Positions 11,001-17,363 of a stretch of DNA of 64,000 nucleotides are shown here, one piece after another. The notes under the pieces were generated by a model. It was not told the origin of the DNA and made no database searches. It saw nothing but the letters and a program-made list of their open reading frames with translations. Position 1 is the stretch's first letter; each line of letters opens with the position of its first letter. Origin of the DNA: Escherichia coli (GTDB taxonomy: Bacteria; Pseudomonadota; Gammaproteobacteria; Enterobacterales; Enterobacteriaceae); NCBI RefSeq assembly GCF_024502345.1, contig NZ_JALDNN010000001.1; one strand, given 5' to 3'. The position numbers and the translations under genes are program-made.

Positions 11001-14000
11001 TTAGTCAAACGGCGGTGGGGCCAGCACTTCACGATTACCGTTGTGCCCCTGTTCGCTGACAATCCCCTGCGCTTCCATCTGTTCGATAATACGCGCTGCA
11101 CGGTTATAACCAATGCGGAACTGACGCTGTACGCCAGAAATTGACGCTTTGCGTTTTTCAGTGACAAACTGCACCGCCTGATCGAACAACGGATCCAGTT
11201 CTTCAGCGCCATCGAAACCGCCCGCGCCACCTTCGCTTTCACTGTCGGAAGTGATGCCATCAACATACTGTGGGCGACCACGCGCTTTCCAGTCCTGCAC
11301 CACGGCATGAACTTCCTGATCGCGAACAAAAGCACCATGGACACGTACCGGCAACGTGGAGTTCGGCCCAGAGTAGAGCATATCCCCCATCCCCAGCAGT
11401 GATTCCGCGCCAGCCTGATCAAGAATGGTACGTGAGTCAATCTTACTGGATACGGTAAAGGCGATACGGGTCGGAATATTCGCTTTAATCAGACCAGTAA
11501 TAACATCAACCGATGGACGCTGAGTTGCCAGTACGAGGTGGATACCCGCGGCACGGGCTTTTTGCGCCAGACGTGCTATCAGCTCTTCCACTTTTTTACC
11601 TACCGTCATCATCAGGTCGGCAAATTCGTCAACCAACACCACAATGTATGGTTCTTTTTTCAGCACCGGATGCTGGGCATCCATACTGTCACCCGGCTTC
11701 CAGTACGGGTCTGGAATCGGACGCATCATGCGATCGGCTTCAGCAATTTTTTCGTTATAACCCGCCAGATTACGCACACCCAGCGCAGACATCAGTTTAT
11801 AACGACGCTCCATCTCGTTAACACACCAGCGCAGCGCGTTGGCGGCATCTTTCATATCAGTAACGACTTCCGTTAACAGATGCGGAATGCCTTCATAAAC
11901 CGAAAGCTCCAGCATTTTCGGGTCGATCATGATGAAACGCACATCTTCTGGCTGTGCTTTATAAAGCATGCTCAGGATCATCGCGTTCACACCGACAGAT
12001 TTACCGGAACCGGTAGTCCCCGCAACCAACAAGTGCGGCATTTTCGCCAGATCGGCAACCACCGGCTCACCGGCGATATCTTTACCCAGCACCACGGTTA
12101 ATGGCGACGGATTATCGCGGAATTTGGCGTTATCCAAAACTTCGCGCAGATAAACGGTTTGTCGTTTTTTATTTGGTAACTCCAGACCTACATAGGGTTT
12201 GCCAGGAATAACTTCAACGACACGCACCGCCACCGTCGAAAGTGAACGGGCAAGGTCCCGTGACAAGTTAGAAATGCGCGCCGCTTTTACGCCAGGAGCC
12301 AGGTTAAGTTCAAAGCGAGTGATAACCGGCCCCGGAGAGTAATTGACGACATCGGCTTTAATACGGAAATCAGCCAGACGCGCTTCCACCAGGCGAGCCA
12401 TTTGTTCAAGCGCAAAGGTATCTACCGGCTCCACTTCGCTCGGCGGCGGTGTCAGCAAATCCAGAGAAGGCAGCGGCGTCGTCGGTTTATGCAACGGACG
12501 GCTGTCGCCATTACGCATCAACAGCGGATGAAGCAGGGTATCCTGCGGCTGTGGCGCAACTGGCTGTTGTGGCTGCTGATACTGCGGCTGCGGCGCAACC
12601 GGTTGTTGCGGCTGTTGATACTGCGGCTGCGGCGCAACTGGTTGTTGCGGCTGCTGATACTGCGGCTGCGGCGCAACCGGCTGTTGCGGCTGCTGATATT
12701 GCTGCTGTGGCGCAACCGGCTGTTGTGGCTGTTGATATTGTGGCTGCGGCGCAACCTGCTGTTGTGGCTGCTGATACTGCGGCTGCGGCGCAACCTGCTG
12801 TTGTGGCTGCTGATACTGCGGCTGCGGCGCAACCGGCTGTTGCGGCTGCTGATATTGCTGCTGTGGCGCAACCGGCTGTTGTGGCTGCTGATACTGCTGC
12901 TGCGGTGCAACCGGTTGTTGCGGCTGCTGTACAGGTTCAACAATTGGCGTAAACAACGGTTCGTGTGGACCATCATCCAGCAACGCTTTCATTGGCGAAA
13001 ATTCAAAATCATCCAGCGAGAACGGATTCGCCCCAGCCGGTTGTTCGCCGGAATAACGTTGTTGTTGAGTTTGCGCAAACTGACGAGCCAGTTCAGCCTC
13101 TGCCGCAGCATCTGCATCTTCTGCGTTTACGGGCACATCATGTTGATACTGTTCGCCATAGCGTTGCTGCTGTGTCTGGGCGAACTGACGTGCCAGTTCA
13201 TCCTGCTGCATCGCATCGATTTCATCATCGTTATACTGATCGCCAGAATCATACTGATTGCGCTGGGCTTCACGGGCTTTCTCTTCCGCCGCACGCTGTG
13301 AGGGCAGCTTAATACCGTAAGACGCCAGTTCACGACGAGTTGGCACGCGGATACGTTTCGGTCGTGGCAACTGCGGGCCAATCCCCTCTTTGACTTGCGG
13401 ACGCGGTCCACCGCTATTTGCCAGACTGAAGACTGGCGCGGCAACGGTTGCGGCAGCCCCCGTCGCCAGTGTCGCTTTTTTCACGCCAGATGCCAGCGGA
13501 GAAACAGCGGCAGCGGCTTCTACTGGAGGTACTGCTGCAACAGAAGGCGCTTTCAACGAAGATTTGATCGGTTCTGGTTCTTTAACCGGTTCTGGAATCG
13601 GTTGATACCAGGCCGCAAGTTGTTCACGTTCACGGGCTCGCTTCTCTTCCACTTCTTCAAAATAGTAAAGCGGCGGACGCGCGGGTTTTGTCTCTTCTAC
13701 AACGGGTTCAGGCTCCACAACAGGCTGCTGTTCAACGGGTTGCGGCTGTTGGTACAACGGCTCCTGAGCGGCTGGCTGCTGATAAGTTTGCTCAGTCTGG
13801 TATGTAGACTGTGGAGCAAAAGTGGATTGCTGCTCTTCGGCTTGCCAGGCGTTACCTGCCACCGGTTGTTCTGGCGCAGGGGCATAATACGGCTGTTGCG
13901 CAGGCTGTTCCGGCGCAGTTGCATAATACGGTTGCTGAACAGGTTGTTCCGCCGCAGGAGCGTAGTAAGGTTGTTGCGCAGGTTGTTCAGCTGCAGGTGC

Positions 14001-15224
14001 ATAATACGGCTGCTGTGGCTGTACTGGTTGTTGCAGCGGCTCATTATATTGCACTGCAGGCTGCGCATATTGTGGCTGCTGTGGGTAACCTTCCGGTGCA
14101 GGAGCAATAACCGGCTCTCCCGTTTGTGGACCCGGTACAGGCTGCCAGGCTACTGTAGGTTGCGAAGGTGGAACATCAACAGAGGCAACAGGCGGCGTCT
14201 GAGTCACAGGTTCAACCGGCGCAGCCCAGCTTTGTGTCGCCGTGGTAGCAGCAGCTGCTACAGCGACAGGTTCGGTAATTGGCGCACCGTTTAATAATGG
14301 ATCGTATTCGTCATATTCTGGCTGCGTTGCACGATTGCCCGAAAATAGGACGTCGTCAGGGTCGGCAGCCACACCGCGTGCAGTGTAGGTAATCTCTTCG
14401 TCATCATCCATCCGCTTACCGGAGAACAACGCAGCGTCTGTTTGCCGCCCCATCGGATTAATGAATTTTTCCGCCAACCGTTTACGACGCGCTAGCGCGC
14501 CGCGAAGAATACGAGCACGGCGTGATTCATGCTGTTTGCCGTGGTTTTCATCTTCATACTCTTCGTCATCTTCATATTCATCTTCATCGACCCAGGTATC
14601 ATCGCGACGGGTACGATTACTGGCGAAGGTGAGAATGTTTAAAATCCAGCCGCCGAGTTTTTCAGCAATGGTCACCCATGACCAACCGGTGAACAGCGTC
14701 AGGCCCGCTGCCCAAACGCAGAGCAGCGCAATAGTTCCCCCGCTACTGTGTAGCAGTGGTTGTAGCGTAGTACTTAGTAAGCTGCCAATGACGCCACCGG
14801 AGGCAAAATACCAGATATCGTCAGCGTTGATTGCCGCCAGACCACAGGAGGTAAGGATGAGCGCCAAAACGCCAATGATGCGTAGCGAAACGGCAAAATA
14901 ATCAATGTATTCGTCGCTGGACTGATGACGCCAGGCAAACCAACAACCGCCGACAATAATGACGGGAATGGTGTAAGCCATCACGCCAAAAATAAAGAAC
15001 AGCGTATCTGCCAGCCACGCACCGGGCATCCCACCTAAATTATGGATAGGTTCATGCCAGGCCGTTTGCGACCAGCTGGGGTCCGAAGGGTTAAAGCTTA
15101 GTAAGGCAGCCATCAACCAGACGGCAAACAGGACAATAAGGATCAGCAACGCTTCCAGAAGGCGACGGCCGCTACTTAACTTTGTCAATGTGACTTCTTT
15201 GTCTTCAGTGTATTCCTGGCTCAA
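11001..15224 (-). CDS. ftsK: DNA translocase FtsK (linker-expanded, predicted 1407 aa)
   Basis: N-terminal membrane domain [31 protein letters not shown]...; C-terminal motor with Walker A GTTGSGKS; long PQ-rich linker with tandem repeats. Confidence 0.95.
12541..12930. repeat. 39-bp tandem repeat, ~10 copies, inside ftsK linker (encodes PQQPVAPQ[PQ]QYQQ units)
   Basis: Directly visible repeating unit ctgcggctgcggcgcaaccggctgttgcggctgctgata with minor variants. Confidence 0.9.
13860..14020. repeat. Second 39-bp tandem repeat block, ~4 copies, inside ftsK linker (encodes [13 protein letters not shown] units)
   Basis: Repeating ggcgcaggggcataatacggctgttgcgcaggctgttcc-like units; protein shows QQPYYAPA x4. 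Confidence 0.85.
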
Positions 15225-15358: not shown

Positions 15359-15853
15359 TTAGCGCGTCTTAATAACCAGACGATTACTCTGCTTGACTTC
15401 TTCCATAACAACGTATGTCCGTGTGTCATTGACGCCAGGCAGACGCAGCAGGGTTTCCCCCAGCAACTTACGGTAAGCTGACATATCCGGCACGCGTGTT
15501 TTCAACAGGTAGTCGAAATCACCAGATACTAAATGACACTCCTGAATTTCTTCAAGTTTTTGTACAGCGGTATTGAATTGTTCAAACACATCCGGTGCGC
15601 CACGATTCAGAGTAATCTCAACGAATACCAGAAGTGATGCATCCAGATAATGGGGGTTAAGCAGCGCCGTATAGCCCTGAATAAACCCTTGTCTTTCCAG
15701 CCGACGCACACGCTCAAGGCACGGCGTTGGGGAAAGTCCCACACGTTTAGAAAGCTCGACGTTAGAAATACGCCCATCCTTTTGCAACTCATTAAGAATG
15801 TTACGATCGATACGGTCGAGATCTTTGCCAGGGCGCTTCTTGCTATCTACCAT
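15359..15853 (-). CDS. lrp: Leucine-responsive regulatory protein Lrp
   Basis: ORF 15359..15907 trimmed to MVDSKKRPGKDLDRIDRNILNELQKDGRISN... (164 aa); AsnC/Lrp family. Confidence 0.95.
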   Translation of the reverse strand: MVDSKKRPGKDLDRIDRNILNELQKDGRISNVELSKRVGLSPTPCLERVRRLERQGFIQGYTALLNPHYLDASLLVFVEITLNRGAPDVFEQFNTAVQKLEEIQECHLVSGDFDYLLKTRVPDMSAYRKLLGETLLRLPGVNDTRTYVVMEEVKQSNRLVIKTR

Positions 15854-16301
15854 TATTATTGTCTCTCTGTATTCCTTCCCTACTCCTGTCTGACCCTGAA
15901 ACATCACTGTTCAGAGTCGCTACCCGTCACGATAGACCGAAATCATGAAGATTCACGGCGCGCAATGCCTGGGTCTACGGTGAGAAGACCGTTGCCTTGT
16001 GGCAGCTATCGACATCACGAATGGCGTCTGTCCACGCCATACGTAGATTTCACTAGCACGGTAAACATGGTATTTACATGCATGGTTATGCGCATATAAG
16101 AATACTGTTTTTTTTCTTCCTCGAATGTTTTCGCAAAACACCAGGGGATTGTCAAAGCAAAACATCGATTTTTAGTACAACATGCCAGATATTCATTAAC
16201 AGGGGCGTTTATTCATCATTTAATCGGCTTATAAAGCGGGAAATTTAAGTAGCAGAGGTGATAATGACGGGAGAATTTGACCTGCTTATCGATGCTGCTG
16301 A

Positions 16302-17363
<1,062 letters not shown>

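Follow-up and report, generated by a model that had tools for sequence, protein, structure and literature searches.

A second 39-bp in-frame tandem repeat in the FtsK linker of Escherichia coli, polymorphic in copy number

The ftsK locus and its linker

The window analyzed here, meaning the whole stretch of 64,000 nucleotides taken from an E. coli assembly (NCBI RefSeq GCF_024502345.1, contig NZ_JALDNN010000001.1), carries the essential gene ftsK and, within it, two 39-bp tandem arrays:

11001 to 15224, minus strand: ftsK coding sequence, 1407 aa with a TTG start (from the open reading frame list, Pfam, and RefSeq annotation of homologous loci)
12543 to 12929, minus strand: array 1, 39 bp x 9.9 copies of a 13-residue unit at 90% identity (Tandem Repeats Finder, TRF); the MLVA locus CVN001
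13860 to 14015, minus strand: array 2, four in-frame 39-bp / 13-aa units in the order A-B-C-D (TRF, unit translation, repeat finding, and shuffle test)
13977 to 14015, minus strand: unit A, 13 residues, 39/39 identity to K-12 and EDL933
13938 to 13976, minus strand: unit B, 13 residues, missing in the 2-unit K-12/O157 allele
13899 to 13937, minus strand: unit C, 13 residues, missing in the 2-unit allele
13860 to 13898, minus strand: unit D, 13 residues, 39/39 identity to K-12 and EDL933

The initial annotation had placed the repeat in the ftsK linker, and both the gene and the location were borne out. Pfam domains, all well above their cut-offs, identified an N-terminal 4TM domain (PF13491, aa 20-191), the alpha domain (PF17854, 918-1018), FtsK_SpoIIIE (PF01580, 1026-1239), and the gamma domain (PF09397, 1342-1402), such that the protein has the full layout of an FtsK/SpoIIIE translocase, with its N-terminal 4-TM domain followed, after a linker at roughly aa 200-900, by alpha, beta (Walker ATPase), and gamma (winged-helix) domains at aa 918-1402. 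Near-identical genomes carry the same name for this gene in RefSeq, and the order trxB / lrp / ftsK / lolA is annotated in 15 E. coli loci. The window shares this synteny, with ORFs upstream of ftsK at 15359 to 15907 (minus strand) and 16302 to 17363 (plus strand) sitting at the lrp and trxB positions, an assignment made from position and a reading of their translations.

Array 2 lies inside the interval between these domains. Pfam searches found no domain at FtsK aa 192-917 and a PDB search found no chain covering FtsK before residue 874, with 2IUS aligning to aa 896-1407. Both array 2 and the linker as a whole fell on the disordered side of the charge-hydropathy boundary (margin +0.18), whereas the TM and motor domains fell on the folded side, and array 2 has the P/Q low-complexity composition of the linker (25% P, 23% Q, 23% A, and 15% Y). 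These properties are those of FtsKL, described as an unstructured PQ-rich linker that differs in length among species and touches FtsZ, FtsQ, FtsL, and FtsI (PMC5357621; PMC3646729). From composition and these descriptions, we infer that the linker polypeptide is disordered. Array 2 forms part of FtsKL and resembles it in composition, in the absence of domains, and in variability between species.

A second tandem array in the linker

A tandem-repeat scan, which the initial annotation had named as the test that could overturn its claim of a second 39-bp repeat, revealed a clear 39-bp periodicity. TRF reported 13864 to 14012 with a period of 39, 3.8 copies, 77% matches, and a score of 179, together with a second period of 78 bp (82% matches), and an independent repeat search recovered one repeat family (D5) at 13861, 13900, and 13939, spaced 39 bp apart. 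At lag 39, array 2 matched itself at 89 of 117 nucleotides, a value reached in none of 2000 shuffles of the codons of the same linker (mean 53.5, sd 1.9, maximum 64), even though the statistic was the maximum over all in-frame lags from 9 to 120. Array 2 is thus a minisatellite in the descriptive sense: its units are 10 bp or longer, run head-to-tail, and recur more regularly than chance allows.

Translating the minus strand in the ftsK frame gave exactly four 13-codon units, head-to-tail and without gaps, that encode QQPYYAPA(A/P)EQP(A/V) at FtsK residues 404-455. The extent first given for the repeat (13860-14020, about four units) was right to within 5 bp.

Comparison with array 1

We compared array 2 with its neighbor in the same linker, the PQQPVAPQ array, from which it had been described as distinct. 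The two share the gene, the linker, an in-frame period of 39 bp or 13 codons, a PQ(Y)-rich composition, and copy-number polymorphism in E. coli. However, they lie 930 bp apart and their unit sequences are unrelated, with the best in-frame circular identity between consensus units (20/39) no higher than composition predicts (codon-shuffle 21.7 +/- 1.5), and a shared origin was rejected on this basis. Weak array-1-like matches, at 65-77% identity, occur at 13739-13781 and 13991-14033 and reflect composition.

Array 1 is already in use for typing, as CVN001, a 39-bp VNTR in the generic MLVA scheme that Lindstedt et al. 2007 set out for E. coli. The CVN001 primers (from PMC8143711) map in the window at 13024-13042 (minus strand) and 12442-12461 (plus strand) and define a 601-bp amplicon that encloses array 1 alone, so array 2 lies outside it and is not part of CVN001. 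The arrays also differ in their behavior: CVN001 has about 4-10 copies with 90% unit identity and 7 length classes, as compared to 2-4 copies, 79% unit identity, and 3 length classes for array 2, with the length classes counted in the same 16 genomes. Variation in the two arrays does not compensate to keep linker length constant, as their correlation was positive (r = 0.59, n = 16).

Copy-number alleles among E. coli

Comparison of ftsK linkers across E. coli genomes, which the initial annotation had proposed, revealed that array 2 is polymorphic in copy number. Alleles of 4, 3, or 2 units each made up about one third of 5,426 complete genomes, as counted with junction probes, each built to keep other alleles from seeding a 28-mer, and with about 900 genomes holding junction variants that all three probes missed. 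In evenly spaced samples from the same genomes, match spans of 501, 462, and 423 bp, and of 321, 282, and 243 bp, corresponded to 4, 3, and 2 units. The A|D junction probe detected 1664 genomes, 1661 of them exactly; the C|D probe detected 774, with an ST131-type two-mismatch C|D junction in 565, mostly ST131. The B|C/D-hybrid probe had 1380 exact matches, which alone were counted as 3-unit alleles, since this probe cross-matched an O103/O111-type 4-unit allele at about 90% identity in 642 genomes.

The alleles are linked to one another by whole or hybrid units. The 2-unit allele of K-12 and EDL933 is A-D, from which B and C are cleanly removed across an 11-nt identical junction (CCTGCG|CAACA). 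Strains 55989, 536, and CFT073 have A-B-(C/D hybrid), with units C and D merged into one, while CFE299, APEC E12053, and SCU-108 have A'-(B/C hybrid)-D, and additional mosaic alleles were seen in Nissle, E300010, and ZJ3920. At least three of the 3-unit alleles are independent of one another. These mosaic alleles, with hybrid units that differ in their breakpoints, indicate recurrent unequal crossover or replication slippage. The direction of change, whether loss from 4 units or gain from 2, was read from unit identities.

FtsK was intact in all 16 E. coli and 5 other Escherichia alleles (1316-1407 aa), and among the 16 E. coli alleles it ranged from 1326 to 1407 aa, which upholds the earlier suggestion of a linker tolerant of length variation. 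The standard laboratory strain, K-12, manages with two units. A phase-variable contingency locus was rejected, as the 13-codon unit lies inside an essential gene and every allele is in frame, leaving no room for on/off frame switching. It is also very improbable, in our view, that array 2 is hypermutable in the broader contingency-type or VNTR sense, changing fast enough to separate strains or outbreaks. Its polymorphism, its three or more independent 3-unit alleles, and the MLVA use of its sister array in the same gene would fit such a locus, but DNA identity between its units reaches only 74-85%, a level that disfavors slippage, one exact A|D junction and one two-mismatch C|D junction are each common to hundreds of genomes or more, and array 1, with its more similar units, has over twice as many length classes.

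The wide sharing of these junctions (1661 and 565 genomes) suggests that array 2 is stable and, together with just three common size classes, points to a locus informative about lineages rather than about strains or outbreaks. The initial annotation had called it a possible strain-typing locus; the polymorphism stands, and judging from these alleles array 2 can serve as a coarse marker of lineage but is probably unsuited to fine typing, a role in ftsK already taken by CVN001 and, in Salmonella, by its counterpart STTR7/SENTR2. Size class combined with mosaic type could offer an inexpensive in-silico marker of lineage, for which three equally common size classes give a diversity of about 0.67, and short reads should resolve array 2 (about 79% unit identity, 156 bp) more readily than CVN001, with its 390 bp of near-identical units.

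Age of the units and selection

Compared pairwise, units A to D showed 74-85% nucleotide identity against 77-92% residue identity. Codon differences within the array comprised 34 synonymous and 11 non-synonymous changes (pS 0.72, pN 0.061, and pN/pS 0.08), with pS between individual pairs of units ranging from 0.44 to 1.0 and reaching 1.0 for A versus B. By comparison, pS in ftsK was 0.03-0.05 within E. coli and 0.48-0.56 against E. albertii, and linker pS was 0.67-0.73 against Salmonella and Citrobacter. On this yardstick the units are ancient and near synonymous saturation, such that calling array 2 a minisatellite implies neither youth nor hypermutability. About 51% of same-residue codons differ between units, with roughly 57% expected at saturation under E. 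coli codon usage, and selection favoring synonymous divergence of neighboring units was not significant.

These values bear on how the units have stayed alike. That gene conversion or concerted evolution of the DNA, and not selection on the protein, maintains their likeness seems to us close to negligible in probability. The hybrid units show that recombination between units occurs, but units have diverged to or close to saturation at synonymous sites, and orthologous units are 95-100% identical across E. coli lineages (39/39 for A and D in the window, K-12, and EDL933), from which it follows that each unit evolves as an orthologue in its own right, without homogenization.

Within-array pN/pS is low, and between species it was 0.10-0.18 for array 2 as compared to 0.07-0.15 for the rest of the linker, which led us to reject the idea that the array 2 peptide is constrained beyond the flanking linker. 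Taken across these comparisons (0.08-0.18), the unit peptide is not free to drift, and describing it as pure spacer may be too weak. Twenty distinct unit peptides, drawn from E. coli alleles and five other Escherichia representatives, keep Q1, Y4, Y5, E10, and Q11 invariant, with the caveat that positions 1-6 of this profile were partly preset by the search pattern that located the units.

We found array 2, at 2-5 units, in all five other Escherichia representatives sampled (E. albertii, E. whittamii, two Escherichia sp., and one divergent record labelled E. coli). Citrobacter has one QPQYYAP motif, and Salmonella has a degenerate remnant at the array 2 position and no QQPYYAPA array detected there, unlike array 1, which is also present in Salmonella. 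Two Logan assemblies (P0028 and P0030) are single-unit relatives.

The invariant residues raise the possibility that the units act together as multivalent short linear motifs, or stickers, whose Tyr-Tyr and Glu-Gln pairs mediate binding to a divisome partner or self-association of the linker, with copy number tuning the coupling of FtsK to the septum. We regard this as unlikely. It would account for the invariance and for a within-array pN/pS of 0.06-0.18 despite near-saturated synonymous divergence, and it would accord with the reported linker contacts with division proteins (PMC5357621). On the other hand, array 2 is no more constrained than the adjacent non-repeat linker, alleles of 2, 3, and 4 copies coexist at similar frequency, the motif is missing from Salmonella and present just once in Citrobacter, and our literature search found no partner mapped to the array 2 segment. 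The more specific version, in which each unit is a weak candidate site for binding or self-association and the 2-, 3-, and 4-unit alleles differ in how avidly the FtsK tether binds the divisome or itself, is less probable still. If true, E. coli lineages would differ heritably in how septum closure is coupled to chromosome clearance.

Interpretation and significance

We consider it very likely that array 2 is an ordinary coding minisatellite made of old units and serving as a length-tolerant spacer in the disordered, PQ-rich linker of FtsK. FtsKL is the tether that joins the membrane-anchored N-terminal domain to the DNA-pumping motor, with array 2 a segment of it. The units of array 2 would be old duplicates that arose at the base of the genus Escherichia or before it, presumably amplified from a motif that Citrobacter keeps in single copy. 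Copy number would then shift 39 or 78 bp at a time, through replication slippage or unequal crossover that would leave whole or hybrid units, and a unit of 13 codons lets the reading frame survive any gain or loss. Moderate purifying selection, as across the rest of the linker, holds the peptides alike, and DNA homogenization does not.

Several known systems behave similarly. The Salmonella MLVA locus STTR7/SENTR2, a 39-bp ftsK VNTR (PMC2430564), and an 84-bp linker-repeat indel in S. Enteritidis FtsK (PMC6137255) resemble array 2 as strain-variable in-frame repeats in the FtsK linker, although STTR7/SENTR2 is an array of a different motif, of 10 residues (Salmonella fragments P0037 and P0039), and not a QQPYYAPA array. 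Swapping the S. Enteritidis alleles gave no phenotype in an egg-white survival assay (PMC6137255), which would be in line with linker length tolerance. Further afield, the 45-bp tolA VNTR SENTR1 (PMC2430564) and the length-variable, disordered C-terminal linker of FtsZ (10.1101/632075) are, like array 2, low-complexity spacers with natural length variation and VNTR use or potential, a likeness of kind between different proteins with different unit sequences. Previous work on FtsKL (Bigot et al. 2004 and Dubarry et al. 2010, summarized in PMC5357621) treated the linker in bulk, and our literature search found no paper singling out array 2, its copy-number alleles, or an Escherichia-specific origin.

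The variability of array 2 is ordinary behavior for a disordered linker, and its biological weight is small: it confirms at base-pair level that FtsK has a tether prone to repeats and tolerant of changes in length. For annotation, E. coli FtsK should be expected at about 1326-1407 aa owing to two independent arrays, and the natural series from 1 motif in Citrobacter to 2-5 in Escherichia suits tests of linker length or motif valency.

A 39-bp coding minisatellite in the FtsK linker

Screening of the ftsK gene with Tandem Repeats Finder recovered a period of 39 bp at 13864..14012 (3.8 copies, 77% matches) together with a 78-bp super-period (82% matches), and a separate repeat search returned the same segment as family D5. 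The feature, here array 2, is therefore real, and the initial annotation, which had proposed about four tandem units in the linker, read it broadly correctly and almost to the base; the array resolves into exactly four in-frame units. Matches at lag 39 numbered 89/117, against a codon-shuffle null, taken as the maximum across all in-frame lags, of 53.5 +/- 1.9 (maximum 64; 0/2000 shuffles reached the observed value).

Features of ftsK in the window
11001..15224, minus strand: ftsK ORF, 1407 residues (ORF listing)
aa 20-191: N-terminal 4-TM domain of FtsK (Pfam)
14015..13860, minus strand: array 2, QQPYYAPA-type, four contiguous 13-codon units A, B, C and D, FtsK residues 404-455
12543..12929, minus strand: array 1, PQQPVAPQ-type, 39 bp x 9.9, 90% matches (Tandem Repeats Finder)
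aa 918-1402: FtsK alpha, FtsK_SpoIIIE and gamma domains (Pfam)

A Pfam search found no recognised domain between the 4-TM and alpha domains. Directly after the membrane domain lies a small acidic repeat (14547-14588, period 6/9/18 bp) that encodes 14 residues. Long stop-free ORFs in other frames overlap array 2 at 13697..14107 (minus strand, 136 aa) and 13395..14294 (plus strand, 299 aa); their repetitive R/L/N-rich translations suggest that they are incidental to the PQ-coding repeat and not genes.

Copy number across E. coli

Queries of 501 bp and 321 bp spanning array 2 were searched against 5,426 complete E. coli genomes, and each matched 5,425 of them. In a sample of 100 rows drawn at regular intervals through the match ranking, the spans formed three classes 39 bp apart (501/462/423 bp and 321/282/243 bp), corresponding to 4, 3 and 2 units in roughly equal thirds (34/32/32, plus two odd alleles), with no 1-unit or 5-unit allele in that sample. 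Junction-specific probes, whose design keeps other alleles from seeding a match, placed the two-unit A|D junction in 1,664 genomes (1,661 exact), the four-unit C|D junction in 774 (209 of the window type and 565 of an ST131 type sharing the same two mismatches) and the three-unit B|C/D-hybrid junction in 1,380 exactly, with 642 further cross-hits from an O103/O111-type 4-unit allele; other junction variants accounted for about 900 genomes. These counts suggest that each allele is inherited stably by large lineages. A search with 13700-14200 gave 5,455 matching places, 8 of them on records labelled plasmid, and a few genomes had two places, which may be mislabelled replicons or duplications.

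Reading 16 E. coli alleles unit by unit revealed 2-, 3- and 4-unit as well as mosaic forms.

Array-2 alleles of E. coli strains
Window, O121 RM8352: A-B-C-D
K-12 MG1655, O157:H7 EDL933, another O121 strain: A-D, both units 39/39 identical to those of the window
55989 (B1), 536 and CFT073 (B2): A-B plus a unit with C-like start and D-like end
CFE299, APEC E12053, SCU-108: A'-(B/C hybrid)-D
Nissle: 3-unit allele of a third type
E300010: 4-unit mosaic
ZJ3920: A and lead-in lost

The A-D allele is a clean 78-bp loss of B and C over an 11-nt identical junction (CCTGCG|CAACA). The alleles have several independent breakpoints, which suggests that copy number has changed repeatedly, by unequal crossover or slippage.

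Age, constraint and length tolerance

Units within the window share 74-85% nucleotide and 77-92% residue identity, and differ by 34 synonymous and 11 non-synonymous codon changes (pooled pS 0.72, pN 0.061, pN/pS 0.08). Calibrated on the same gene, where pS is 0.03-0.05 within E. coli, 0.48-0.56 between E. coli and E. albertii, and 0.67-0.73 between the E. coli linker and that of Salmonella or Citrobacter, this value indicates that the units are ancient duplicates near saturation that predate the E. coli/E. albertii split. Homogenisation by gene conversion was rejected, because orthologous units are 95-100% identical across lineages whereas paralogous units are not.

Between species, pN/pS was 0.10-0.18 for array 2 and 0.07-0.15 for the surrounding linker, which we treat as equal, and the array-2 value is five- to eight-fold above that of the TM and motor domains (0.02-0.04). 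Array 2 is thus constrained like ordinary linker rather than as a special motif, which weighs against the idea, prompted by the invariant YY and EQ positions, that each unit binds weakly and that its valency matters; none of the measurements made here favours this idea, and we consider it improbable.

Judged by the charge-hydropathy boundary, the array (25% P, 23% Q, 23% A, 15% Y) and the whole linker both group with disordered sequences, and a PDB search found no solved structure covering FtsK before residue 874. The linker, FtsKL, is described in the literature as an unstructured tether that FtsK requires for normal activity and parts of which contact FtsZ, FtsQ, FtsL and FtsI (PMC5357621; PMC3646729); literature searches turned up no partner mapped to the array-2 segment. 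In S. Enteritidis, swapping linker-repeat indel alleles had no phenotypic effect under the assay applied (PMC6137255). Natural FtsK lengths across the 16 alleles span 1326-1407 aa, the window's protein being the longest, and K-12 works with two units, which argues for the tolerance of length change that had been suggested from the sequence. Array 2 is most probably a spacer segment tolerant of length change, in which general linker constraints maintain the residue pattern.

Relation to array 1 and use in typing

The two arrays are distinct, as first proposed: their consensus units agree at 20/39 positions against a composition null of 21.7 +/- 1.5, a likeness no greater than composition predicts, so that a shared origin was rejected. 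Their period of 39 bp (13 codons) is nonetheless exactly common despite the unrelated sequence, which may reflect coincidence or a 13-residue periodicity preference in the PQ linker.

Published primers for CVN001, the 39-bp locus of the generic E. coli MLVA scheme and the most polymorphic one in PMC8143711, match the window perfectly at 13024-13042 (minus strand) and 12442-12461 (plus strand), and the 601-bp amplicon, for which (601-250)/39 = 9.0, holds array 1 only, with array 2 outside it. Since array 1 is CVN001 and its Salmonella counterpart, a homologous 39-bp ftsK repeat, is the MLVA locus STTR7/SENTR2 (PMC2430564), typing by ftsK linker repeats is already established practice, with array 1 and not array 2. 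Array 1 is also the more labile, with seven length classes against three in the same 16 genomes. It has 10 units in the window and 9 in RM8352 (O121, locus L001, the nearest complete genome), in a different unit order, despite a 100% identical array-2 segment and 99.4% identity over the longest ungapped block, which begins about 1.3 kb upstream of ftsK and runs into the start of array 1. Of the two arrays, array 1 is therefore evolving much the faster. The suggested use of array 2 for strain typing stands in part, in that copy number varies and marks lineages, but it probably resolves lineages only, with three common sizes, or a larger number when mosaic unit types are counted as well.

Distribution in other taxa

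Scanning species-representative genomes yielded 80 named loci. Tandem array 2 was present in all Escherichia representatives returned, with 2 units in Escherichia sp. MOD1-EC7003 and Escherichia sp. E1V33, 4 in E. albertii and the divergent 'E. coli' SCPM-O-B-8794, and 5 in E. whittamii. Citrobacter species carry at most one QPQYYAP-type motif at the same place, Salmonella only a degenerate APQYAA/APKYAV stretch, and two further relatives a single QQPYYASAPEQSV unit. Other genera, such as Leclercia and Pseudocitrobacter, have their own unrelated short repeats at this position, so the linker is generally a hot-spot where repeats expand lineage by lineage; the sequences compared point to repeated independent expansion in this part of FtsK. 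Repeats at this position include QPQYEQPQHV-type and EPVYQQPQPY-type units and a VVEETKP duplication (loci L035, Leclercia; L038, Pseudocitrobacter; L027, Citrobacter gillenii).

Elsewhere in the linker, a 47-nt dispersed direct repeat lies at 13053-13099 and 13158-13204, 105 bp apart and with 81% identity, so that a 14-residue motif occurs twice, 35 residues apart. Both copies also occur in Salmonella FtsK fragments (P0037, P0039), so the pair, unlike the arrays, is kept across genera. Most database matches to FtsK aa 330-550 are 120-380-aa fragments, several of which change frame just past array 2 (P0012, P0014, P0015, P0020, P0025, P0035); the pattern suggests artefacts of assembly or gene calling, concentrated around linker repeats in draft assemblies.

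Gene and disordered linker are both well known, and array 2 within them is a coding minisatellite of an ordinary, already known kind whose sister array is a standard typing locus. The new details are modest: the approximately equal split among 2-, 3- and 4-unit alleles, the mosaic alleles, and the expansion, specific to Escherichia, of a motif present once in Citrobacter.
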